NCBI GenBank assembly: GCA_038087875.1
Contig: JAXLNO010002577.1
Coordinates: 62,001 to 126,000, forward strand
Reading direction: 5' to 3'
DNA from: Malacoraja senta
Taxonomy: Eukaryota
DNA length: 64,000 bases
The first letter of the stretch is position 1. The number at the start of each line of letters is the position of its first letter. The position numbers and the translations under genes are program-made. Shown one piece after another: positions 5,520 through 62,564 of the stretch. The notes under the pieces were generated by a model. The model did not search any database and was not told the DNA's origin. It was given only the letters and a program-made list of their open reading frames with translations.

Positions 5520-6043
5520 GGGACATTATTGCTATTGAGGGAGTGGAGCGTAGGTTCACCAGGTTAATTCCCAGTATGGCGGGACTGACACATAATGAAA
5601 GAATGGGTTGACTGGGTTTATATTCACTGGAATTTAGCTGGATGAGAGGGAATCTTATAGAAACATATACTGTAACATTCTTAAGGAATTGGACAGGCAA
5701 AATGCAGGAAAAATGTTCTCCATGTTGGGGGAGTCCAGAACCAAGGGTCACAGTCAAGAATAAGGGGGAGGCCATTTAGGACTGAGATGAGGAAAAACAT
5801 TTTCACCCAGAGAGTTGTGAATCTGTGGAATTCTCCGGCACAGAAGGCAGTAGAGGCCAATTCACTGGATGTTTTCAAGAGAGAGTTAAATAAAGCTCTT
5901 AGGACTAAGGGAATCAAGGGATATGGGGATAAAGCAGGAACTGGGTACTGATTTTGGATGATCAGCCATGGTCATATTGAATGGTGGTGCTGGCTCGAAG
6001 GACCGAATGGTCTACTCCTGCACCTATTTTCTATGTTTCTATG
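5520..6043 (+). mobile_element. CR1 LINE 3' fragment
   Basis: IEGVERRFTRLIP..FTQRVVNLWNSP; 3' UTR with a (TTTCTATG)n tail. Confidence 0.9.
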
Positions 6044-6540
6044 AAACTGCCGTACACTTGAGACAGGTGGTATTCGAAGATTGTGAAGACAACCGCACAT
6101 TTACTAGTACGGTGCTTTGAGAACAAAGCCAGGCTATGACTTGACCGTTCTGTGGATTATTTATGCACCAACCGTCAGATGTTTACGAGAAGGTCTCAGC
6201 AAGATCCGCTACTGTTAAATCTGACGGGGGGACCAGGCGGGGAACCGCCGAGAACGATGGGGGGACCCTGCGTAGGGCCGCCAAGGAATGAAGAACGTGC
6301 AGTGGGAGGCCTAGTTCACCGCTGCGAGCAGATAAAACTATTTGATTGACCTTTTGCAACTTTGTCAGCATCAGAACCAAGGCGACTCTTGTATACTGCC
6401 TAGGTGAGGTCTGCCTTATGATTTTACCGGGTTGTATGCAAAACAAAGCATTTCAATGTACCTAGGCACATGTGACAATAAACTATCTTTGAATTATTGA
6501 ATAATTGAATCATTGAACTAACAGGGACCTAATTCATTAA

Positions 6541-6750
6541 TGTAGGAATGTAGGAAGGAACTGCAGATGCTGGTTTAAACCGAAGATAGACACAAAAAGC
6601 TGGAGTAACTCAGCAGGTCAGACAGCATCTCTGGAGAGAAGGAATAGGTGACGTTTCGAGTCGAGTCCCTTCTTCTGAACCCTATTCCCTATTCCTTTTC
6701 TCCAGAAATGCTGTTCAACCCATTGAGTTACTGCAGGTTTTTTTTGTCTA
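6541..6750. repeat. Palindromic Penelope-terminus-derived repeat (related copies ~8180, 12010, 12820, 14760, 18055, 25010, 43255, 54638)
   Basis: Inverted arms GCTGGAGTAACTCAG..CAGCATCT / AGATGCTG..GAGTTACT around a GACGTTTCG..GACCCTTCTTC core shared with the Penelope terminus at 56262-56360. Confidence 0.7.
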
Positions 6751-7387
6751 TAATGGGAAATCATGCACCATCTCGGGTATCCAAACAATATGTTGCCAAA
6801 GTTTGCAACCAAAACCAAGAGCTGCAGAACCAGCCATCACAAGAGCAGTCCCACTATACCAACCTGGAGAGTTTCAATTTAAAACTATCTGGATTCTGCA
6901 GGGAAAGGAGCATGATTCCTTAATGAAGGATGATACATTTTTTTTTATATCTTGCCTGCCTGAGTAATACTGCAGGGAGAAGGTGATGGTGTATTCATTA
7001 ATTTTTTAACATTTTCATTAATAAGCTGAAAAACAAAAGTTCTGCTTCACAGATAGAATTGATTGTTGGGTTATTAAGAATAATGAATTTTTGAATTATG
7101 ATAATTAGCCCAAATTATGCAAATTAATATAATTTGAACATGACTACTATATTACATGCTGCCCTTCTCATCTTTATGGACTTTGAATATTATAATCTCC
7201 ATGATTGAAGAGGTAGCACATATAGGTGCCTAATTTATATACCCAAAAAGTTGATAATAAAATAGTCTATCTCATTAACTGAAGCACTATTAAAGTTTTT
7301 TTTAGTTTGCAGATCATAAAATGAGTAATAGACTGTGAGGTGGTGCAGTGCAGTACAAAAGGCATTTGTGCAATATTAATGGTTCTT

Positions 7388-8130
7388 CATAAGTTCATAA
7401 GTTATAGAAGCAGAATTGGGCCATTCGGCCCATCGTCTACTCCACCATTCAATGATGGCTGATTTCTCTTTCCCTCTCAACTCCATTCTCCTGCCTTCAC
7501 CCCATAACCCCTGACACTCTTACGCCCTAATCAAGAATCTGTCAATATCTGCCTTAAAAATATCCATTGATGGCCTCCACAGCTGGCTGTGGCAATGAAT
7601 TCCACAGATTCACCATCCTCTGATGAAAGAAATTGCCTCTCATCTTTCTAAAGATACACCCTTTTATTCTGAGGCTGTGGCCTCTGGTCCTAGACTATCC
7701 CACTAGTGGAAACATCCTCTCCACATTCACTCTATCCAGGTAAGTTTCAATGAGGTAGAGTCCCCTCATCCTTCTAAACTCCAGCAAGTACAGGCCCAGT
7801 GCCGTCAAATGCTCATTGTTTGTTATCCCAATCATTCCTGGGATCATTCTCGTAAATTTCCTCTGGACCCTCTCCAATGCCAGCACATCCTTCCTCAGAT
7901 ATGGGGCCTAAAACTGCTCACAATACTCCAAATGCAGCCTGACCAGTGTCTTATAAAGTCTCAGCATTACATTCCTGTTTTTATATTCTAGTCCCCTCAA
8001 AATAAATGCTAACATAGCATTTGCCTTCCTTACTACCGATTCGACTTGCAAATTAACTTTTTGGGAATCTTGCTCCAGCGCTCCCAAGTCCCTTTGCACC
8101 TCCAATTTCTGAATTCTCTCCCATTTACTG
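7388..8130 (-). mobile_element. CR1 LINE 3' fragment
   Basis: Minus-strand ORFs KANAMLAFILRGLEYK..LVRLHLEYC and LERVQRKFTRMIPG. Confidence 0.9.
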
Positions 8131-37565: not shown

Positions 37566-39557
37566 TTAACTCCAAACAGGAACCCGAATATGACTATGTG
37601 CCGGGGTCCCATGCTTAACGCATAATGCACGACAATCGCATGAGGGGAAGTGGTGTGCTTTGTCTCTAATATTACTGCTCCGTCAGAGACGGACTAGCCA
37701 CTACAAGAAAAGTTGGTCAGCAGCATTAGCGATCTAATGGAAATTACAACATGGACAAAGTCTGCGAATAAATTTGGCTGGAACTCCAGCAAAGGTAAGG
37801 AGACCTGGAGTTAGAGACACTGGTAAGTAGGTCTCATTATTCACTTCCATGATATTTCACGATGGTGGACAAACAGTATTCAGCATTGCTCCACTAACTT
37901 TCGTCAGAGAATCTTCAGTTACATTACAAACTGATGTTAGTGCTCAAAGATGGGATATTACTAATACCATCTCTAGTTACAGAGGTGAGAGGATTGGCAT
38001 GAGTTACCAATTCTTCAGTTATAGGGTATCAACTACCTATAGACACTAGGTGCATTCTATGGGTTAAATGTTTTGTGCGAAAATGTATAATCTGCATGCT
38101 CAAGGCCAAGTTGATACACTTGGTAGTGTCATATGTTAATCACATGGGTGCAATCAAGTCAAAGTATCCAGTGATAGTTTACCTAACCTCATTTGGCTCT
38201 GGTGTTTTCATCACGTAAAATCTATGCCAAAACAGAATGAATGTTGGATCACTAAGTATTAATGACTTGGTGGCTCATGGAACGCTAGATCGAGGGTTTG
38301 CATCCAGGCTCAATCACCAGTTGCAGTAAAAAATAAATTAATAATAATAAATAAATAATAAAATATAATATGTGGCATGGCAGTGGCGATAGATGCATTC
38401 TCGCCACACTGGGGAGCTATATCTTCCTCCATTTTGCCTCATCAGTCGGGTTGTATTATTGTCAGCACTATCCCACTTCAGTCATTTTTGTAGTGACTGG
38501 CCTATGCAGCCAGGATTACCGCTGATATTGGGAATGATATAGAACATTATATGGTTATTTCTAACATAGAATTGCTGGTTCTGCCCGTGACTCGGGCAAC
38601 CATCCAATGCATGATAAAATCAATTCATTGACTTACAGACCCTGAAAGGACTGTTTCCTGCAGCTCGGATTGTGAGGCAAACCCATGGACGTGCTCACTG
38701 CAGATTGCAGGGAAGCTGCGACTAGACAGGATGGTTACATCTGCAGATAAAATAACAATTTATGTTCATGGCTTAGTCAAGCGGAGCGGACCAAGGGCAT
38801 TAGGTCTCAAACTAAATTTTGGACATGCCCCATGAACCTTTGATTATGGGTGATCACATCTACTACAATACGTGAAGCTCACTAGACCCTTAGGAGCACT
38901 GATCTAGCAATGTTTGTTAGTTACAATAACCTCATAAGAAGGTATCAGTTCAGACCATCTCCAGGTGGTTAATGAGTTCTGGCGTGTGCAGGAGTGAACT
39001 CTAACATTTTCAAATCTCACTCCACCAGGGCTGCAACAGTTTTCAGCAGCAGGGTTATGGACGTTCCACTGTACCACATCCTAGCAACTGCAGGATGGTC
39101 AAACGAACGATCTTTTCAAACATTTTTAATAACAAACCCATTGCCAGACCTAGGGTATTTACCCAACTCTATTTTTTAGTTCTGTTTATAGTTTCCTCCC
39201 GGACAGAGGGGTTACTATTGTCATTTTGTTCATTAAAAGCATCAGCATGTCTAAATCTATGTCATGTCTGGTAGCATTATTAATGTTCACTCATCCCTGG
39301 TCATTTGATGCAGTGTGTGACGCATGGACTCGTTTCCACGGCATGAAATCACAGATCTTCAAAATCTTCACATAGTCACTCACGTGACTCTGAAGTAAAA
39401 TAGTAAGATTAAACGAGAACTTACCAGTTTGAAGTTTGATCTTTATTTTATGAGGTGTTACGATGAGGGATTACGTGCCCTCCGCTCCCAACCCTCCTCA
39501 TAAAAAGATCAGCTGGTAGTTCTAGTTTTCTCCAAATCTTACTATGTTTAGGTCAAC

Positions 39558-39770
39558 TGTGGCGGTCCCTGGGGGGTAAGCCACTCCTTGGATCATCCCC
39601 CTCGCCGAGTGAAGGACAGGGGACTGGTCTGCCACGGGGTTTCCAGTCGACCCTGGGTTTAGTGCTCTCGAGGTGTATGTGTGTGGTGTGCTCTCGTCGT
39701 AAGCATTAAAGTCTGCTAATTGAACCCGCCTGGCGTCTGGCCTTTTACTGACCTCGTTCAGGCCGCTACA
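39558..39770 (+). mobile_element. Solo LTR (213 bp, Gypsy-like)
   Basis: TGTGGCGG...CCGCTACA termini, perfect TSD CAAC (39554-57, 39771-74), ATTAAA near 39705. Confidence 0.85.
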
Positions 39771-41264
39771 CAACTTTTATTATCTGTGATTTCACACCGC
39801 TGCTTTGAAGATTGACGCGCATGCGTGCTGACGGCCTTCTTCACGTAATCCCTCATCGTAACTCCTCATAAAATAAAGATCAAACTTCAAACTGGTAAGT
39901 TCTCGTTTAATCTTACTATTTTGGATGATCAGCCATAATCATAATGAATGGCGGTGCTGGCTCGAAGGGCCGAATGGCCTACTCCTGCACCTATTTTCTA
40001 TGTTTCTATGAGTCAAGAGTGTTTTATTGTCATATGTCCCAGACAGAACAATTAAATTCTTACTTGCATATTTTTCTTACCAACTAAAATATCACCTTAA
40101 GGTTATACTTTGATTGCCAGTTAGAAGAATCATGTGTTTTCTAAGAAAACCATTGACATTGCCCACGTTGAGATTCAGAGAGGTTATTTTACAGAGGGAC
40201 TTGTTATTTTTTTCCACAGATTAACTTATGATGAAAGGTCTTCAGATCTTAGCAATAGCATTGGTTTCATACAAGAGCTGTACATGGCCTTGTACTTTAA
40301 TAGTAAACAGCGGGAGCAGTGTTGGTAACGACTGACAGGATAACAAGGATCAATAGAAAAAACTGTGATCCCAATGGCAGCTGGTAAAACAGAAGGTGGA
40401 CTTTATTGGCAATCAAATGAACAAACAGGGCAGCCTTATTTCAAGACACTTTAAATATCACTGCAAATGGCATTCCTTCAATAACTCAGAGACCATTAAC
40501 TATCTTGCTCACAAGCACAAAAATAAGTTTCCATAATCATACCCAGAGTGCAAGTGATATAACCCAGCAATATTGTTTGTAACAATGAGGAACAGAGCCC
40601 TATTTCAGGATGACAATGTAACTTTGTCTCTGGAATAAGGGGACATAAATTTATTAGGGCCAATTTTATCATTGAGTATTGGATTAAAATGGATGATATG
40701 TAACTGACAACCTATTATTGTCCCTCCTTGATGTGCGCTGTGGACCAATATAGTAGCATTGGAACTTTTCAACTCTTTCAGTGAAGTTAACAAGGAAAAT
40801 GGGAAAAGGGAAATAAAAAGTAATTCACGACAATGGGCTGTATTATAAGTGCTTTAAATTGGCTGGATAGTGAAACCATTGTGTCCTCTGGTCTCTCAAC
40901 AATGTTAAGTCCATCAAATCCTCACAAAATAATTCTGGGGAAATTGAGTCCGCATTTACTTTCAACTAATGTCAAATCAAAAAGGTCTTGAAAGCTCTAT
41001 TGCTATTGGTATTGGTTTAATATTGTCTCGTGTACCAAGTTACAGTGAAAAGCCTTGTTTAGCGTTGTATCCAAGCAAACAATGTTGCTGTTCATTAGTA
41101 TATCAGATTGTGAAAAAGAGAAAATAGAGAGTGTGTGGAATATAATGCTGCTACAGAGAAAGTGCAGATTAAAGAAAGAGTTCCATGGCTGCAACGAGAT
41201 AGCTTGGAAGATCGGGAATTTATTGTCAATGTCAGTCCATTTGTCAGTCTATTGTCAGTCCGAT

Positions 41265-44640: not shown

Positions 44641-44914
44641 ATCAAGTTAATTAGTCATTCGTGGTTCACAATATTGCTGCTTCTGAGCTGGAGTTCTTTT
44701 AAATGTTTCTTGTTACCCGGCATTGATTTCATGTTTCTTTTTGTACTGGCCACATGCACCAGATGAGATAAGTGGGTCAGGGTGAGATGAACCAACAATG
44801 GAGATGACTCCTCTACACCAGCATGCTAAAGCAGAGTGTCAGCAGCAACACCCGTATAGTACAGTAAACCATCGCAATGACAGAGTTCTACATCACAGAT
44901 TTCAGCTATGAGGG

Positions 44915-45452
44915 TGAAAGAGCTAATAGTCAAATCTAATATAGTTTACAAAATGGAGTCATTCTTCTACAAAAGCATGGTCTAGTAGAACAAAAGAATG
45001 GCTTGGTGCCAAGTCTGAATGACTTTGCAAATTATATGGAACACAATATGGAGGACAGGTTGTCTTTTTAATGAAGACATTAAGATGGAAACCAGCGTAA
45101 TAACATGTGCATCTTTCAAAGCCATAAAGAAGCCGATTGAAAAAAATAGCTGATGCTCCAGAGATAAGTAATAACTTGTCATTGGATGAGCTTGATTTGG
45201 ACCCAGCTTTTCCTATATTCTGAAAGGCTATAGAATCTTTCAGTCATGCCATATTCAGACTTGGTAGGAGTGTTTTACATAAGAAAAATGAATAATTGCG
45301 CTAACCTTCCTTTGTTCTGTGAGTGGGGCCCGAGAAGCACTGAGCAACGTTTTACCTCATTGTAGATCTTGCCACTCCCGTCTAACGAATCGATTAAAGA
45401 TTGCCATTTACAATTTTGTTGCTGTCTGCTTTTTAAGAGACGAACTTTGACA
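44915..45452 (+). repeat. 5' LTR (538 bp)
   Basis: TGAAAGAGC...TTTGACA with ATTAAA near 45394. Direct repeat of 53179-53729, with 6 mismatches in the first ~155 bp. Confidence 0.95.
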
Positions 45453-45454
45453 TT

Positions 45455-45472
45455 TGGCGTTAGTCGGCAGGT
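45455..45472 (+). promoter_or_regulatory. Primer binding site, tRNA-Ser type
   Basis: TGGCGTTAGTCGGCAGG versus TGGCGTAGTCGGCAGG, the complement of the vertebrate tRNA-Ser 3' end ..CCTGCCGACTACGCCA; one extra T. Confidence 0.8.
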
Positions 45473-46700: not shown

Positions 46701-47559
46701 GAACGGCTCTGTCAGACAAGGGAGGGGAATGTAAAATTGATACAGAGGGATGCCTCTAATGTGCAACGTGATTTTTTTGGAAACGAGGGGGCTGAGCCAC
46801 TCTGACTCTGTACCTGATGTATTGTGACATACATCAGGTACACAAATTTGTGTACCTGATGTATGTTTTGCCCATTCTTTTGTACTAGTTTTCTTTTAAT
46901 GTTCGAAGGGAAGTATTTGTTCTAAACCAAAGCTCTCTCAAAGTGTTCTCGGATGTTCCAAGTTGTGTCCCTTATCAGACTTGATAGATCTTCCTGTTCT
47001 TTTGAGTTGTCACTCATCCAAGTTCTGTCCCTCATCAGACTAGAGGGCTCTCACTGTTCTTTTCAAGGCGATGCTGCCTAGATACTAGCAGCTCTATTTT
47101 CCTTTGTTCAGGATTTTGCTCTGTCTGTTTCATTTCTCCCAAAGCCTATCGGGATACTTGACATCCAGTCCCAGGCTATACTTATATATTCATATATATA
47201 TGTCCCTTTTTGGTGAAATAGTCTGTGTCAGATGAAATAGGATGTCATTGAATGAGCTTGCAATCTATGGAAATTTATTGTTTATTCTTTGTTTTCTCTT
47301 AACTTCAGTTTATTTTCTTCCTATTTCTTACCATTTGAGTTGAGTTCAAATAGAGACCTGAGTTCCACGATGGCCACGTGGCATCCAGGTAGATGTGTTA
47401 GATGAAATTACAGATGCCTTTATCTCAGAACAAAATCTGTTAATTTGAAATTGTAAATTTTAGAGATAGATTGGAACAATTGGGAATATTTTTAAATTGT
47501 TTTTTTTAAATAATAATCTATTTTTAAAGGGTCTGCCTTATAGGTAGTTAAAGAGTGAT

Positions 47560-47910
47560 CTCACATCTCCCACCACCCATAGAATTCTGAATTAGTTGAG
47601 GGAATGAATAGGACACTAAAGAGTGTGGAAGTTCGTTATGACCGACAGGCCCGCAGCGATGAATCAATTACATATGCACAGCAATTAAGCACAACCTTGT
47701 CAGTCTTGCATTCACAGGGATTGGAAACACAGAAGCCACTGCCAGTTAAACACAGACACAGTCCATACTACTGGGAGACTACGTACTGATAAGGTACTGG
47801 GATCGGACAAAATTGGGACTATGTTGGAGGGGACTGTACCAGGTGCTACTACGACACCAACCGCCTTGAAGATTGAAGATTACTCCCGTTGGAGACATCT
47901 GATACGATTG
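47560..47910 (+). pseudogene. Retroviral integrase relic
   Basis: HP*NSELVEGMNRTLK (catalytic-E region) and WRGLYQVLL-TTPTALKIE..W.H (GPY/F module, gammaretrovirus-like). Confidence 0.85.
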
Positions 47911-48068: not shown

Positions 48069-48330
48069 GATGGATCCATTACCACAGGTTCTTGAAGTAA
48101 CCAGAAAAAGGTGGCAGCTTATCCCGGAGCTACAGACCGAGCTGAAACAGGTGAGAAATGTGCTCACCAATGCCCAGTCTGAAAATGAGCATCTCACTTC
48201 CATCACACAGCAGCTGAGGGAGAGCAATCAGGTTGTGGAGTTGAAAAGCCTTGATTTTGGAGTGCAACTCAGTTACAGAACTGTATTGAGGTAAATCCCA
48301 GCCGGGATCAAAGTGAGGAGCTGAGTTGGG

Positions 48331-48398
48331 ATGGATCAGATGGAGAAGGAAGAAGAATGCTGGTTTCACACGCTGATGGACAACTTGGGAGAAAGAAC
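48331..48398 (+). pseudogene. CRACR2A: CRACR2-family cDNA fragment (left piece)
   Basis: EEECWFHTLMDNLG resembles CRACR2A EEAQFRMLMDRLG and continues at 51894. Confidence 0.65.
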
Positions 48399-48759
48399 GA
48401 CTCCATTTGTGAAAAGAAACTACATTTGTGATGAATGTGGACAGACTTTCAAACAGCGGAAACACCTGTCAGTTCACCAAATGCTCCTTACTGGAGCAAA
48501 ACCGTTGCAGTGTGAAGTTTATGATTTCCAGTGCAGGCAAAGAGCATATTTGAAATACCATATGACTCAGCACAAGGCAGAAGCTGAACTTGAATTTGCT
48601 TGTGACCAATGTGAGAAGCGGTTCGAGAAGGCTCACAATTTGAATGTTCATATGTCCATGGTTCATCACTTGACCCAAAATACAGATAAAAACAAACCTA
48701 TTGAAATTGAATCAATTCAGCTAAGTATAGAAACATTAATTAAGCAGGAACCCAGTTAA
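48391..48759 (+). pseudogene. ZNF276: Processed ZNF276 C-terminal part (last three C2H2 fingers and stop)
   Basis: RNYICDECGQTFKQRKHLSVHQM..KPLQCEV..QCRQRA.LKYHMT.HKAE.EL.FACDQC.KRFEKAHNLNVHMSMVH; no introns. Confidence 0.92.
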
Positions 48760-48773
48760 TAGAATCCTAGCAA

Positions 48774-51700
48774 ATGGAAGGACTGTACAGGACTCTGATA
48801 ACAGAGGGGAAGAAGCTAGTTGGTGTTGTGGTGATGCAGGATTCCACTTTGCCACACTATATATGTAGGAACTGTCAAGCTCAGTTTTTTAAGTGTTGGA
48901 CTATCTTGAAAAACTTCATTCAAAAAGTGAATACTTCACCAGTAGCTTCAGTACAACATGGACAAAAGGCTAACAGATGTGTTGCAGCAACTGAAACATC
49001 ATCAGTGCAATCACTTTCACAATCTCCGTTAAGCAATTCTGTGTCTGGTGACTTTAAACAGATGTTAAACGACGGTGTCTTGGTTGCAAGTCCACAGGTT
49101 CTACAGATTTTGGTCACCTTGGCTCACCATCATGGTAGTAGCTGTGGATCTCAGCCACATGTACAGAGTGTTTTAACAGCAGAGTATCGAGGAGTAGTCG
49201 GCGCTGTGTGGGGGTGTCCAGAGGGCCACAGTTACATCCTGGACATGCATTCAAGTCGCAGCGTTGTTTTGAATGAGGGACAGTGCCCATCCAGTAGAAA
49301 TAAGGACTCAATGGAGGAAGTTCTGGATGGTTCAATAACCCTTTCACCTCGGAATGGAACAATGACTGAAAATGGTGAGGGTGATAATGTTGCGAAGCAT
49401 CAACCTGTCCCAGTGTTAGCAAACTTTCAGCCTTGTACATACAGTGGAGCCACTTCGCGGTCGGTGGATGTGAACAACTCGGAATCCCCATTGAAGAAGG
49501 ATATGTTCTTGCGCTCAGATCCTGAATATACAGAGTGCTCTTGGGAAAAAGTTCAGGTACAAGATGCAACTCAACCATTAAATGTGAAAAAAACAGTTAA
49601 CTGCAATGAAGCATCTTGTTCTATAAGAAATTATGTTGTGGACGGATTGGAGTCCAGTGATCTTTCTGAAAGATATTCATCAAGTGAAGATGACATAGAA
49701 ATAAAAGTTAAGAATGGCTCTTCAGATGAGTCTTTTCAACCATATTGGAAGAAGAAGAGTAATTTACCAGTTAAAAGGTCTGTCTCACTGTGCGAGTTGA
49801 CCCACGAGTGACCCCGAGTGAAAGACTCGTGGTTGCGTACGACACTACAAGTTTATGATCCAGAGTTTAACCGAGTTCCCACGGGTATGTCTAAGTTTGC
49901 CGTTTACTTCTCATTTCTGCGATGTTCCAAGTTCGTCTCCCGAGTGTACCAAGTTCCTCTCCCGTTAATCTTGAGGCAACAATGTATATCGAAGTGTTGA
50001 AAAATGATCACACGTTAAAAAAATGATGTCATGACAGCCAAAGAACGTAGAGACTATTGTGTTTGCTGCATGTGTTCTGCACAACCTGATCCGTATCAGA
50101 GGTGCAGCTTCAGGATCAGCAACAGCCATGCAGGACGGTGAGTTAGTGGACAGTCAAACAGGAAGAATAACACTAGGTGCGTGGAGGAGTGGTACAAACG
50201 ACGAGACTTTGGTGCCACTGCAGTGTTTTCGAGGTAACACGGGGACCAACAGTGCAAAAGAGCAGAGAGACCATCTCTGCTCCTACTATAATTCAGAATT
50301 GGGCAGTGTGCCGTGGCAGGACAGCTTATTTTGAGCGGCTGCCGACCACAGGTACATCACTGCATGAGGAGAGCCCACATGCAGAAAAATCCAGTTAATT
50401 TCATGTTTAGTTTAAATCCTGCTGACTTTTCATTGTTTAACTTTAAGTGTGGATTTTATTTTTTATTGTGGTGTAAAAGTAATTTCATTGCATCTGTCTT
50501 TCCTTTAAAACGTGGTTATCATGCATCTGCTTATCTGATTGTAGATCTCAAAACTTGTCATTTAGCGCATTGCATTGTATCTTTTATTGCCTGAATTTAG
50601 ACGTGCATTTCTCAGCTGAATTAGTATATAGTGGAAATACTTTTATTTGTGCTTCATTTGTTGATTTTCATGTATGAGAAGCCCTTTTTCAGACCACTGC
50701 GTTTTGCTGTGGTGCTTCACCGTGATATGGGTTTGCAGGAAATTACGCATATTTCTCAATATGCGCAAAAAAGCGTTTTTTATATTGAACAAGAATAAAG
50801 ACTTTGTTTCACATTCAAGACATTTGTTTCACATAAGACTTTGTCTTATTTTCTGATCTACTGAGAGGTGACAATTTTAAACATTTAAAAAGCACAGCAT
50901 ATGAGGCAGCTGTCCTTAAATCTCACAAATGATTGTGAGAATCAAGATGTGAATATATTTTGCCTTCCTCTATTTTGTGTTTTATGATGAAAGGAATATT
51001 ACATTCAAGTCATGAGACTTTGTAGTGATATTAAAATGAAGACTTCCAGACATCAATTTGATCTTGATAGCAAAGAACTCTCTTTTATTGTGCAATGAAG
51101 TAAACAAACAGTGAGAATCAAACAGATCAGCAAAAAGCTTTTCAACACAACACAACACAACACAAATTTATATATAAACTTCAAGCAATTTTTTCTTTTC
51201 AACCCACTCTGTCACCTTATCAATAACTTGTTTAACTTTGTTAAGCAGAATTTGTCTTTAAAAAGTCTAAGTAACTGATATTTCTGTCCCTGATTATTGT
51301 TTCTAAAAAGAGTTCCCACGGTAGAATCACGAGTCACAAAGTTAAACGCACGGGCCACTACGTTCTTACAACGAGTTTAAAATGTTTCAAATTTTAACCA
51401 CAAGAGTACATTTTACTCGTGGAAAAGTACAAACATGTTTGAACTTTTGCAAGAGTTAACAAGTTTCACGTGTACCTCCCGTTAGCGCCAAGAGTCGCTA
51501 AGTTGCGTCCACGAGTTCCGACGTTCCCGCTACGTTAATTGTACGTGATTACCACGAGTTAAATTTGTTTTAAACTCGGGGTCACTCCTGGGTCAACTCG
51601 CACAGTGAGACAGCCCTTTAAGAAGTGCAATATTAAGGATGTGAAGAAACAATCTGGAAAAAAACGTGGCCGGAAACCAAAGTCAAACTTGGAAAGGGAA

Positions 51701-51901
51701 GATTTCCCCACCATGTATCGATGTCAGTATAAGGGTTGCTGTGCTGTTTACAGAGGAGTTGACGGACTTAAGAAACACATAAAAGAGCAGCATGAAGAGG
51801 TGCATGAAAGACCTTTCCCCCACCCAGGATGTAACAAGGGAGTTTCTGATTGATCGCTACCTGCAGCTCCATGTAAAGCTAATCCATACAGAAGAAAGAA
51901 C
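48774..51901 (+). pseudogene. ZNF276: Processed ZNF276 N-terminal part (end of zf-AD, linker, first two fingers), split by a Harbinger
   Basis: LVGVVVMQDSTLPHYICRNCQAQF..VWGCPEGHSY..SSDESFQPY, then after 51621 EREDFPTMYRCQYKGC.AVYRG.DG.KKHIKE.HEEV.ERP.PHPGCNK, a frameshift, and FLIDRYLQLHVKLIHTEER. Confidence 0.92.
49775..51618 (+). mobile_element. PIF/Harbinger non-autonomous (deleted) transposon
   Basis: ~45-bp TIRs AAGG(T/G)CTGTCTCACTGTGCGAGTTGACCC, TAA TSD, and a transposase C-terminal relic ACVLHN..GAWR..RDHL..YNSELGSVPWQ (50059-50334). Confidence 0.92.
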
Positions 51902-52223
51902 ATCTTTACAGATCAGGAGAAAGTGCAAAGCCTCTGATCACAACTTCGGAAAGACAAACCACATTTGATCAACAATAGACAATAGACAATAGGTGCAAGA
52001 GTAGGCCATTCAGCCCTTCGAGCCAGCACCGCCATTCAATGCGATCATGACTGATCATCCCCAATCAGTACCCCGTTTCTGCCTTCACCCCATATCCCCT
52101 GACGCCGCTATTTCTAAGAGCCCTTTAGATATTTTGAAGCATTTTGAGTTCTATCATATGACCAAGGGTCTAGAGAGAGAGAAGCTGAATATTTTGAAAC
52201 AGATGGACCTCTTGAAAGAAATT
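51894..52223 (+). pseudogene. CRACR2A: CRACR2-family cDNA fragment (right pieces), split by a CR1 tail
   Basis: KNIFTDQEKVQSL*SQLRKDKPHLI..FEAF and [25 protein letters not shown] versus CRACR2A [31 protein letters not shown] and [25 protein letters not shown]. Confidence 0.7.
51972..52125 (-). mobile_element. CR1 3' end inserted in the provirus
   Basis: (CAATAGA)n tail followed by GGTGCAAGAGTAGGCCATTC; reverse complement of the 33290-33458 type. Confidence 0.9.
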
Positions 52224-52971
52224 ATACATAACCCTACCCAGGAAGACAATGACTCAGACCTGGTGGGTAATCAGTGTGATGACAATCAGGACATTGATGA
52301 GGATGGCAATGATGGCGTTTCTGATGAGAAGGACAATTGCTGTTTTGTTCCCAACCCTGACCGGATCGATGCCGATGGTGACAGCAGAGGAGACACCTGC
52401 AAGGACGACTTTGACAACAACATCCCAGATTTCTATGACATGTGCCCCGAGAACAGTGCCATCAGTGAGACTGACCTGAGGAAGTTCCAAAGGGGATGAT
52501 GCCGATCATTCCTAACTGGGTAGTGCGCAACAAGGGCAGGGAGTTACTGCAGATCGCCAACTCTGACCCTGGCCTTGCTGTCGGATTTGAGGAGTTCAAC
52601 GCCATCAACTTCAGTGGCACCTTCTATGTCAACACAGACCACAATCTACGGTGGCTTTGTCTTTGGCTTCCAGTCCAGCAGCCGCTTCTGGTGATGTGGA
52701 TGCAGGCCACCCAAACCTACTGGGAGGAGAAGCTGTCCAAACCCATGGATACGCTAGCGTCTCGCTCAAGGTGGTGAACCCCACCACAGGCCGAGAGGGG
52801 GGGAGGGGGGGAACACCTGTGCAACGCTCTCCGAAGAGACTCGCAACACCCTCAGACAGGTGCGAACTTTAAGGCACAACCCCAATACCGGATGAAAGGA
52901 TTACACCGCCTCCAGGTGGCACCTGATCCATTAACCCTAAACAAGCTTCATCAGGATGGTTGTCAATGAAG
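52224..52971 (+). pseudogene. THBS2: Processed thrombospondin (subgroup A, THBS2-like) type-3 repeats and TSP C-terminal domain
   Basis: [97 protein letters not shown]; intronless with frameshifts. Confidence 0.9.
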
Positions 52972-53178: not shown

Positions 53179-53729
53179 TGAAAGAGCTAATAATCAAATC
53201 TAATATAGTTTACAAAATGGAATCATTCTTCAACAAAAGCATGGTCTAGTAGAACAAAACAATGGCTTGGTGTCAAGTCTGAATGTCTTTGCAAATTATA
53301 TGGAACACAATATGGAGGACAGGTTGTCTTTTTAATAAAGATATTAAGATTGAAACCTGCATAATAACATGTGCTTCTTTCACAGTCATAAAGAAGCCAA
53401 GATTGAAAAAAATAGCTGACACTCCAGAGATAAGTAATAACTTGTTTTTGGATGAGCTTGATTTGGACCCAGCTTTTCCTATATTCTGAAAGGCTATAGA
53501 ATCTTTCAGTCATGCCATATTCAGACTTGGTAGGAGTGTTTTACTGATAAGAAAAATGTATAATTGTGCTAACTTTCCTTTGTTCTGTGAGAGGAGCCCG
53601 AGAAGCACTGAGCAACATTAGTGATCATTGTAGATCTTGCTACTCCCGTCTGACGAATCAATTAAAGATTGCCATGGTTTACCTTTAACAATTTTTTGCT
53701 GTCTGCTTTGTAAGAGATGAACTTTGACA
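53179..53729 (+). repeat. 3' LTR (551 bp)
   Basis: TGAAAGAGC...TTTGACA followed by the AGGG TSD. Confidence 0.95.
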
Positions 53730-53992
53730 AGGGACTGAGGCTCCCGTTGCACTCCATCCCTCCCATCTTCCTCCAGGTTACCCAGTGAGCTGGTGCCCAT
53801 GATGGACTTCCGGTTGCAGGAGCGGGGAGTGAGAGCAGCGTGAAGGTGGCTTGAGCGGCGGGCCCGTCACTGGCGCATCGCGTGTGGGGGCCAAGGGCTC
53901 TGTGGTTCCTCGGCCTGTGAACTCCCACTTGTTTACCAACCCCCCCTCCCCCGTCCCCCTCCCTCCCTGCGATGCTGTGTTTCTTCCCTCAG

Positions 53993-54290: not shown

Positions 54291-54410
54291 TGACTTCCTA
54301 GCCTTGGATTAAACATTACCACTGAACGGTTCACGTCTTGTATAAACACAGTTTAAAAATTAAACAATACAGCTCAACAATTAGTACAAAAGGGCAAGGT
54401 GTGTAAAACC

Positions 54411-54590
54411 CCTGTCTCACGGTGCGAGTTGACCCACGAGGTACTCCGAGTGAAAGACTCGTGGTTGTGTACGAGATTCCAAGTGTATGATCAAGAGTTT
54501 AACCAAGTTCCCACAGGTATGACTACGTTTGCCGTTAACTTGTCATTTCTGCGATGTTCCAAGTTCGTCTCCCGAGTTACCAAGTTACTC
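54411..54590 (+). mobile_element. Harbinger left-end fragment (same family as 49775)
   Basis: About 180 bp matching 49780-49955; no right TIR. Confidence 0.85.
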
Positions 54591-55319
54591 TTGAGCCAAA
54601 CGTGAATGAAGGTCTGTTTTAATAAGCAACAGTGTTATTGAAGAAGGGTCTCGACCCGAAACGTCGGATATCTCTTCTCTCCGTAGGTGCTGCCTCACCC
54701 ACTGAGTTTCTCCAGCATTTTTTGTCTGCCTTTGCATATTTACAAGCCTTGTTACCACCGTTTTTAAACAAAACAATATTCATGCTCAACATTATGTTTA
54801 TCCAAGTACATTCACTGTACTTCCTTTACTGTAATAGACGTTGGAACCTCCTGAGTTTGTGATGGGCGCTATTTAAATACAGGGATGTCTTTTCATTGCT
54901 GGACGTTTTTCCCTGTAACATATTTAATAGAATTTAAACTTTATAATTAAACTATTCGCATCCGCGTATAAAATCTGAATTAAGCCGAATCACTCATTGA
55001 ACTGGCAAACGTGACATGAAGGCCATAAAGACGGAAATGGCAGACACAGACGCAGAATATTTGTATCTGCATTGCATTTACGTGCAGTTCATTTGGACCA
55101 CAGTCTATGGCCCTTCCGCTGCAGGATATTGAAATGGGGACACCCGTCAGACAAGGGTAGGGATATCACCCCAAGGGGCACATAGCGACAAGAGAGTTTT
55201 GTTTAAATATAGATGGAAACACTCCTAAGTATGACACTATTGAATGTATAGACACTGATAATGCATTGCACTGTTTTTGTTTTGTGCACATTTCTTATTC
55301 TGAGTAAAGTTTATTTTTA

Positions 55320-60200: not shown

Positions 60201-62055
60201 TATGAATGCCAGATATCGATTTGTTTTGCATCAAGGTTCAACCATCAATAGCCTAAATAGGTTTCATGGGAACCAGACCAGGTGGCAGTTGCAATTGATA
60301 CTTTGATGTTACATTGGGGTGGTATGTTTTATATATTTTCCTACCATTTTGCCTAATAGTTCGGAGTCTGCAAGAAATCAAGCACGATGCTGCTTTGGGG
60401 GTGCTTGTAATACCTAATTGGCCGAATCAAGCATGGTTCCCTTTGATGTTACAGTTAGGGATCCAACCTCTTTTTGGTGGTTCCCAAGCATAGGAATTGA
60501 CTGCAGCATCCGCTAACACGGGAAAGTCATCTGTTATGTGATGGTATTGACTTGTTAATTTGCAGGTTTTAAGAAGGCCATACCTGGAGCAAGTATTGTC
60601 TGGGTGAACGGTGGACATGCTCATTGTAGCCTGGAGAAAGAGTACTCAAAAGGGGTATATTACTTATGTAAAAAAAATATTTAAAAATGGGAGCAATATT
60701 GTGTACAAAATAATATTGACTATAGTACTGCAGGTATTGTGGATATTTTAGAGTTCCTGTTGACGCTCTACGATGATGAGGGGCTCAGTTATAGCACCAT
60801 TAATACAGCTTGAAATGCTTTGTCCTCATATGGTTTTGATGGGGTCAGGAAAGATCCTATTGGGTTTCATCATATCAGAGCTGGATTGATGAAAGGAATT
60901 TCAACTCTAAACCTCCTAAACCCAGGTATATGACGATCTGGGATGTAAGTGTGGTTCTCAAGATGCTTCGACAGTAGGTTCCTGTCATGTCTCTGACTTT
61001 GCCAAACTAATCTTGAAAGTGGTTATGCTCATGGCAATGGTTCAGCATAGCAAGTGCAGAGTTTGCAAAAGCTTTTGCTAGACAGGATGGAAGTTGCTGA
61101 AGAGAATGTTATGTTATATATTTGCGTCCTGCTCAAACAGAGCAGGCCAGGTGTCACAGGTTTGCTAAAATTGTGTTTCAGCATAATCTACTGATCCATG
61201 TTTATGTGTAATGGCACATTTATTTTCATTATATTGAAGCTATAAAGACCTTAAGAAATGTGGAAACAGCATTAGTTACATGTAGCCACATAGGAGAATG
61301 TCAGTGCAGACTATCTCAAGGTGGTTTAAAGCAAATGTTGATTCAGGCAGGTATTAACACTGAAGTGTATATATCCCTTTCCACTAGTGCAGCAGCAACG
61401 TCGTCGGCTAGGGCGATGGATGTTCACATCGGCCATATTCTTACAGGTGCCAGGTGGTCAAATGTATTGTTTTTTTTTAAATTTACTATCGGCTGATTGC
61501 CAATCTGCGAGAGGCTGTTTGCAAATTCAGGATTAAGTCCTGTTTAGTTTCCCCTGGGATAGAGGGGTTACTGGTTGTTTTGATTATTCAAATCAATTGT
61601 TACTGCATGATATTCACATTTCATGTTTAACACATTATTGATTGTTTCTCATCGAAAGTCAATCAATGCAGTGAGAAGCCGGGATTTGGATCTGCGGCAT
61701 AAAATCACAGAGCTTTGAACCCTTCACGTGGTCAGTAACGTGACTCCGAAGTAAAATAGTAAGATTAAACGTGAACTTACCAAGTTTGAAGTTTGATCTT
61801 TATTTTATGAGTTACGTTGGTGATTACGTGCCTGCCACGCCCAACCCTCTCTCATAAAAAAGGTCATATGGTAGTTCTCATGTTGCACATCTTAATATGT
61901 TACTTCAAATATTGTGTTATCTGTGATTTCATACCGCTGCTTTGAAGATTGACGCGCATGCGCCCTGACGGGTCTTCTTCACGTAATCACCAACGTAACT
62001 CATAAAATAAAGATCAAACATCAAACTTGGTAAGTTCTCGTTTAATCTTACTATT
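57290..62055 (+). mobile_element. DIRS1-like retrotransposon (near full length, decayed)
   Basis: Left end TTTTACTTCGGAGTCACG, ICR at 61722-61830, right ITR at 61950-62055. Relics of RT (IDLKDA, LDDIL), RNaseH (YINHIGG, YLPG), MT (FASRFNHQ, PNWPNQAWFP) and YR (STSAAATS..ILTGARWS). It splits a minus-strand Rex1 fragment (57170-57289 / 62056-62105). Confidence 0.9.
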
Positions 62056-62564
62056 ATATATGTTTTGAGGCAGCGTGGAGTAAATGGTGGGAGACCTGGT
62101 CTTTGTAAAATAATATATCCTATAAGATTTTTTTCTCATTTTGAGACATATAGTAAAAGACTGTGTTCTGATACTAACTATTAAATCCCTTAAACTTGCA
62201 AAATAACTGTTTATTAGTTCTGGCGAGGACAGCTGACCCTTTACTTGTGCAGTGACAAGGGGAGGGGTTCTCGTAATTAGCATAAGGAATGGAAATGAAA
62301 CGTTCACAATATAATCACCAGGCCCGTACGAAGCTTTTCAAAAAGGGGGGTGGCATGACAGGATTTGCAGAACCAGGGTTGGTTTACAGGGCAAGGCCAA
62401 CGAATGCCCTTGCATTAGTAGTAGTGGTAAATGGCAATATACATTCAGGAGCACCTGTTCCGTTGTTTTGCACAATCCGCAAGCATTGCCACTTTCATTT
62501 TACTGCACATCTTATATGTATATGTGACAAATAGACTTGACTTACCTTGACTTGACGACAAGTA

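Follow-up and report, generated by a model that had tools for sequence, protein, structure and literature searches.

A circularly permuted, one-turn ZNF276 copy in an LTR element of Malacoraja senta: a circle-like footprint joined at microhomology

Elements bounded by long terminal repeats (LTRs) capture host mRNAs through microhomology-guided template switching, as described for the LTR-mediated retrocopies of Tan et al. (2016, PMC5131818): parts of mRNAs, without introns, lie between two LTRs, with switch-point microhomology (median 6 bp in that paper), several genes per element and re-amplification as non-autonomous elements. The pseudogenes derived from circular RNAs (circRNAs) that were described by Dong et al. 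(2016, PMC4897178) show a non-colinear exon order, no poly(A), flanks of LTR or endogenous retrovirus (ERV) sequence and dozens of copies. In that paper, permuted retrocopies flanked by LTRs are interpreted as circular-RNA fossils, and how they retrotransposed is called mysterious. Here we describe a locus that shares these features of both classes: a copy of ZNF276 inside an LTR element of Malacoraja senta, located in a stretch of 64,000 nucleotides (contig JAXLNO010002577.1 of assembly GCA_038087875.1, G000:C2577:62001-126000 in our searches for further copies, which covered the 1.94-Gb assembly). We refer to this stretch as the window and give positions in its numbering.

The ZNF276 host gene was located at G000:C2:152.639-152.673 Mb, adjoining a FANCA match. 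The names ZNF276 and CRACR2A, the latter for the sequence that received the copy, are taken over from an earlier note on this DNA and from similarity; for ZNF276, the position beside the FANCA match and a 577-residue open frame with C2H2 fingers provide a further basis. The block consists of ten host exons from which all nine AG/GT introns are absent, and its last two exons and 3' untranslated region (UTR) precede the eight upstream exons. The copy is circularly permuted relative to the host gene, whose exon order confirms what the earlier note had read from the letters, namely C-terminal fingers and stop upstream of the N-terminal part. The 3' half (48413-48817, + strand; C2:152662674-152673244) contains the last three zinc fingers, the stop codon (48757-48759) and the 3' UTR, which ends in an antisense fragment of a long interspersed nuclear element (LINE). 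The intronless 5' half (48811-51900, +) comprises eight host exons in order, from the middle of the zf-AD exon (C2:152638969) to IHTEE at the end of the IHT exon. Although ZNF276 sequence is present on both sides, the block is not ZNF276 cDNA throughout (48391-51901), as had been assumed: 1.84 kb of it (49775-51618) is a later insertion of a terminal inverted repeat (TIR) DNA transposon, presumably PIF/Harbinger-like, which has a TAA duplication and is absent from the sisters. Contigs of related organisms have the ordinary linear ZNF276 mRNA order (joint 7649 to 5822 on L127).

On host mRNA coordinates, obtained by splicing the nine AG/GT introns out in a script with m1 at the start of the zf-AD exon, the block runs from ~m1390 to m2149 and then from m154 to ~m1395, which amounts to a single turn of 1989 nt whose ends overlap by 6 nt. 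In the 94 records with matches, many of which are one place fetched twice, no ZNF276 sequence lies below m154, and the only three matches above ~m2150 (66-79%) all concern the LINE portion of the UTR. A dimer is thus absent, and the tandem ZNF276 arrangement that the earlier note had held up as a competing origin was not seen in any of these records. The block results from one capture. Both halves come from a single ZNF276 gene and have diverged about equally: in the window they differ from the host at 45/1226 and 17/343 sites (Fisher p=0.27), and differences common to most copies occupy 19/1202 and 6/343 columns, so that the separate captures considered in the earlier note are not borne out. 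The halves could nevertheless come from two mRNA molecules of ZNF276 or from a later-trimmed tandem dimer, and a slight difference in their paired per-copy divergence (4.2% vs 4.9%, n=46, p=0.011, with non-independent copies and the UTR included) would agree with this; moreover, sequence cannot separate one molecule from two identical ones. We disfavour this origin as very improbable, since no copy has ZNF276 sequence past one turn, the majority-common differences are as even as given above, and two copies of one mRNA would be required in one particle.

The join of tail to head lies at 48811-48817 (+), where a 7-nt microhomology, AGAAGCT, connects the two halves without splice signals. The sequence is ...GGGGA AGAAGCT GCTCC in the host UTR and ...TTTCC AGAAGCT AGTTG in the host zf-AD exon, the 7-nt match being perfect. 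On the head side, the join falls 154 nt inside a coding exon, and on the tail side ~410 nt downstream of the stop, within an antisense fragment of a high-copy LINE. A microhomology of at least 7 nt was obtained in 0.06% of 200,000 random back-jumps. The earlier note was right that the 3' UTR is linked to the middle of zf-AD, but placed the join at ~48760-48810; sisters carry ~220 bp more at 48762, so this position represents a later deletion. The join is intact in 18/59 copies, the remainder having lost it by later deletion or falling short of it. Among the matches listed for four contig runs of related organisms, with alleles unphased, none bridges the join, which counts neither way.

This join is not a back-splice, because none of the eight possible registers combines a GT or GC donor with an AG acceptor. 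The check for splice sites and microhomology thus bears out the suspicion, voiced in the earlier note, that it might not be a canonical one. A canonical back-spliced circRNA as template would explain the non-colinear exon order in LTR sequence, as in the mouse circRFWD2 copies (PMC4897178). Yet the class described in that paper is defined by a back-splice exon-exon junction, whereas the ZNF276 join leads from mid-exon to UTR at a microhomology; it lies away from exon ends in every register, and the block includes the 3' UTR of the terminal exon. Barring new splice chemistry, these observations refute a back-spliced template, and we regard its chances as negligible.

The recipient is a captured piece of CRACR2A. 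Its left part (48289-48399, +; host exon G000:C3:72218511-72218373) ends in GAAAGAACG and contains the left copy of GAAAGAA (48391-48397, +). The right copy, together with the CRACR2A continuation, occupies 51894-51976 (+), with zero bases lost by comparison with the host exon and with four empty elements (L084-L087), which run straight across the site without the ZNF276 block. The 9-bp direct repeat seen in the earlier note, AGAAAGAAC, occurs exactly twice on the + strand of the window, at 48390 and 51893. The microhomology between ZNF276 and CRACR2A that was read from it is real but comprises 7 nt (GAAAGAA) and not the whole 9-mer; the host mRNA reads AGGAAAGAAAC, so that part of the 9-mer is a later change. 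Around the insertion site the CRACR2A host exon reads GGGAGCAAAGAACGTCTTT, and in contigs of related organisms CRACR2A runs on without interruption and has one extra C (joint 5800 to 7646). As all four empty elements lack the C, the recipient at the time of capture read GGGAGAAAGAACG, with GAAAGAA in common with the ZNF276 exon junction.

GAAAGAA is present a single time in ZNF276 mRNA m1-2400 and a single time in the interior of the empty element, and donor and empty element have 363 other common words of at least 7 nt. That entry and exit use one word despite these alternatives is not due to chance. They also coincide in the donor, where the block starts at ~m1390 and ends at ~m1395. The earlier conclusion that one full turn was copied between entry and exit at the same microhomology is supported, as are a single capture and a continuous recipient. 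Filled copies have lost no recipient bases, and 8-9 nt, GAAAGAAC(G), are duplicated on both sides, coinciding with the microhomology. At the left junction, 13 nt of ZNF276 sequence are copied again (48400-48412, +). This stutter, which the earlier note had recorded as a short duplication at the left junction, is family-wide: among the 40 copies that have the anchor, 39 show the longer spacing (33 of them exactly 38 nt), none the clean 17 nt, and one is undetermined.

The empty elements L086 and L087 retain host letters at one site on each side of the insertion. At the left site, 42 of 43 filled records differ from this letter and the 43rd has a third letter; at the right site 40 of 41 differ, with two places counted twice. 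Having kept host letters on both sides, L086 and L087 are likely older than the capture, whereas L084 and L085, which have the derived letters, could be either late pre-capture copies or excisions. Trees of the flanks (25/60 and 32/60 rows long enough) are star-like, with L086 and L087 together on one side at 83/86; as this is below the starred level and the root is a midpoint root only, we did not use the trees as proof. A G/A letter after the right repeat was rejected as a pre-capture marker because 3/43 filled matches also have G.

Permutation with a flanking direct repeat is what a DNA circle would leave on integration by a single crossover, and empty sites exist; a ZNF276 cDNA circularised by microhomology end-joining might have recombined into a proviral copy at GAAAGAA. 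We consider this improbable, as the clean crossover that it predicts is found in 0/40 copies, the homology is just 7 nt, and three separate rare events would be required.

In our estimate there is an even chance that the block was made by three reverse transcriptase (RT) template switches on a single linear ZNF276 mRNA packaged in a retroviral particle. Microhomology is present at all three junctions, and we infer the following path, given in minus-strand order. RT would leave the element RNA at GAAAGAA and prime on the identical word in the ZNF276 mRNA. It would then synthesise ~1.24 kb in the direction of the mRNA 5' end, with RNase H degrading the template behind it; the earliest cuts would lie in or just 5' of GAAAGAA, such that the 3' remainder would now begin at the entry word. 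At AGAAGCT in the zf-AD exon, RT would jump to the AGAAGCT of the 3' UTR within the uncopied remainder, copy up to the end made by RNase H, stall there and re-copy 13 nt. Finally, it would return to the element RNA at the point of departure, copying 8-9 nt twice. Subsequently, the chimera would have been multiplied in trans as a non-autonomous element and would have undergone trimming by further microhomology deletions and neutral decay.

Several details of the junctions fit these three switches. A backward jump onto the remainder would run out of template at the entry word, and the observed end at ~m1390 falls within m1389-1395. The 13-nt stutter fits a stall at a template end, and the duplication of 8-9 recipient nucleotides fits as well, as the element RNA would not yet have lost the few bases behind the exit point. 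Since the same footprint is predicted for a linear mRNA that RNase H has cleaved at the entry word, no circle is needed, and the circular template that the earlier note saw in this footprint does not follow from it: the join lacks splice signals and resembles the other switch points of the family in its 7-nt microhomology. In retroviral forced or dynamic copy-choice, RT switches upon meeting a template break, in an RNase H-dependent manner, and intramolecular switches give insertions and duplications (PMC3187697); RNase H cuts have been placed 18 nt behind the primer end (PMC5389522). Different from the cases described in PMC3187697, the template here would be a host mRNA, the jump would lead backward onto the uncopied 3' remainder, and the outcome, with zero net loss, is fixed in a germline family. 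The three other mRNAs captured by the same element also count in favour of switching on linear mRNA.

A second back-jump is present in the CRACR2A piece itself, where 33 nt of a downstream exon stand 5' of the upstream exon (48264-48296, +), joined mid-exon at an 8-nt microhomology, AGGTAAAT (48289-48296), in filled and empty copies alike. Together with the stutter, it fits RT switching on linear mRNA. As one of its nine registers is formally GT-AG, we regard it as supportive, not clean. L144 was considered as a longer CRACR2A capture and rejected, as a LINE disrupts it.

Other observations weigh against the three-switch path. RNA folding that would pair the two join sites is not significant, the duplex energy being equalled by 7.5% of 400 random pairs. 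The tail site lies ~330 nt beyond the sole AATAAA found, so that a longer form of the UTR has to be assumed. The CRACR2A back-jump, besides its one formal GT-AG register, covers just 33 nt and makes no full turn, and the paired divergence of the two halves differs slightly, as noted above. A covalently closed, non-spliced RNA circle would yield the same ends, as RNase H would stop synthesis after one turn there too, and the duplicated recipient bases with their templated insert also resemble a target-primed, LINE-type insertion.

A non-spliceosomal ZNF276 RNA circle of this kind, closed at AGAAGCT, packaged and copied once by the element's RT, would account for entry and exit coinciding in donor and recipient, and it would need two RT switches instead of three. 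'Interior' circular RNAs, back-fused within exons or UTRs at short homologies without splice signals, have been claimed in print (PMC8153647); the claims described there are at the RNA level, whereas the ZNF276 case is known from DNA copies. Non-colinear junctions with short homologies are, on the other hand, usually treated as marks of RT switching (PMC4132752), the family's later deletions carry microhomologies of the same length, and the CRACR2A back-jump in the same element would require a second such circle. We therefore judge an interior circle to be unlikely, if credible. PMC4897178 itself names RT read-through on non-closed RNA as an alternative, for a vault RNA case.

In target-primed reverse transcription by LINE machinery, a nick in a genomic copy of the element would expose the complement of GAAAGAA and prime inside the ZNF276 RNA, and the cDNA would close on the 8-9 nt overhang after one turn. 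GAAAGAAC(G) on both sides would then be a target-site duplication, the templated insert at the 5' junction would be accounted for, and the genome is rich in LINEs, with the tail site itself within a LINE fragment. Poly(A), a feature of LINE-type processed pseudogenes, is however absent, the block ending mid-mRNA on both sides; the three other mRNAs point to capture in particles, and the permutation would still require a loop or circle. This makes a target-primed origin quite unlikely in our view.

With two LTRs and a target-site duplication, an intronless partial copy, microhomology at the switch points and no poly(A), the element is a member of the LTR-mediated retrocopies. It differs from the Drosophila set of PMC5131818, as described there, in that part of the recipient is always replaced in that set and no element is both continuous and interrupted, whereas the CRACR2A recipient is continuous and loses nothing. 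The main text of that paper contains none of the words 'circular', 'exon order' and 'intramolecular', and the ZNF276 capture is a full permuted turn. Our literature search, with older subscription literature and the supplements of PMC5131818 outside its scope, returned neither this family nor a one-turn capture joined at microhomology.

Tentatively, and with a little less than even confidence, we propose that retroviral RT can make a perfect 'circle footprint' out of a linear host mRNA, and that this family is a fossil of the reaction, which may have happened twice in the same element. If so, a circle would be unnecessary for some non-colinear retrocopies currently interpreted as fossils of circular RNA. 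The full footprint of permutation, one turn, flanking direct repeat and intact recipient can occur without a back-splice, which calls for caution with circRNA-derived pseudogenes and offers a junction-level rule by which that class could be re-audited. Because one genome provides the donor and recipient genes, the empty sites and dozens of filled copies, every junction can be read to the base. The locus documents with unusual completeness the way in which a permuted copy can come about, representing a new variant of LTR-mediated retroposition, and an example of an LTR element shuffling the domain order within one gene.

The carrier is flanked by the target-site duplication AGGG (44911-44914 and 53730-53733). 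Its 5' LTR (TG...CA; 44915-45452, +) is 90.9% identical over 552 columns to the 3' LTR (53179-53729, +). A primer-binding-site-like sequence follows at 45455-45471 (+), presumably matching tRNA-Ser. The viral genes are reduced to remnants, and no long open frame besides the captured pieces exists between the LTRs. A decayed C-terminal integrase remnant (47750-47866, +) has a weak match to Pfam MLVIN_C (E 0.094, below cut-off). The carrier, whose sole trace of gag, pol or env is this match and whose target-site duplication is 4 bp, may or may not be of class I (gamma/epsilon-like) ERV ancestry. Within the decayed internal region, 46827-46866 form a 40-bp near-perfect palindrome, which several sisters have too.

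The element contains mRNA pieces of four host genes: BICD, CRACR2A, ZNF276 and a thrombospondin. The BICD piece (48096-48248, +; Pfam BicD, E 3e-11) is colinear with its host gene (G000:C4:87.08 Mb), with 94-96% identity to the host exon. About 15 nt that match neither examined host exon (48250-48263) separate it from the CRACR2A piece. A further CRACR2A exon piece lies at 52146-52215 (+; host C3:72210543-72210474), followed by the thrombospondin-family piece (52216-52870, right end approximate, +; Pfam TSP_3, TSP_C). The host gene of the latter was not found in searches of the assembly; a candidate at C2:44.76 Mb was rejected as a paralog of 69-84%.

The search with the ZNF276 block scored 40 places among 458 candidates, namely the host exon and 39 element copies including that of the window, and searches with other element parts gave 80-180 candidates each; the family therefore has at least dozens of copies. 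As in other LTR-mediated retrocopies, the element was re-amplified as a non-autonomous LTR element. Matches to the thrombospondin piece are grouped on single contigs (G000:C385, C124, C2402, C864, C2711, C5373), which suggests that the element, once inserted, was amplified in tandem or segmentally. Deletion joints of the family's type occur in contigs of two other organisms (two of four related-organism runs, X4 and X15, on L127), and the family is thus likely older than their split from M. senta.

LTR pairs differ by 5-11% and the copies by ~4-5% from host ZNF276, a fit indicating that amplification came soon after capture. Stop codons interrupt 31/57 and 21/48 copies of the two halves. Protein-level selection was not detected in either half, the private changes in 52 copies matching a context-matched neutral null (synonymous singletons 109 vs 103.6 and 50 vs 46.3 expected, p about 0.26); under this null, a reading of raw pN/pS (the ratio of non-synonymous to synonymous changes) of 0.50 and 0.28 as selection was rejected. 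The copies are a dead neutral fossil, with no function indicated. In the window copy, the CRACR2A piece shares, through the stutter, a single open frame of 144 codons with the last three ZNF276 fingers (48325-48759).

Three later deletions common to copies have microhomologies of 8, 7 and 8 nt. The ~220-bp deletion at 48762 of the window copy is not seen in the examined sisters, which keep that part of the UTR; a 6-nt microhomology returned for it by a neighbourhood search was not counted, as it is ~2 nt by eye. One copy (L082 / L146, G000:C1609) is the only one seen with an uncut ZNF276 3' UTR; it keeps 127 nt that others lost, so their deletion is secondary, and the remainder of its block is gone through a large deletion. 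In the window copy, a dispersed repeat resembling a LINE 3' end, absent from most sisters, inserted later at 51977-52130. Inside the TIR transposon, a decayed stretch near 50050-50370 is transposase-like, and a related transposon end lies just outside the LTR element (54404-54591, 89% over 189 bp). Elsewhere in the window, 39397-39922 and 61752-62058 hold short near-perfect inverted-repeat pairs (81 nt at 99% and 79 nt at 96%) that resemble miniature inverted-repeat transposable elements.

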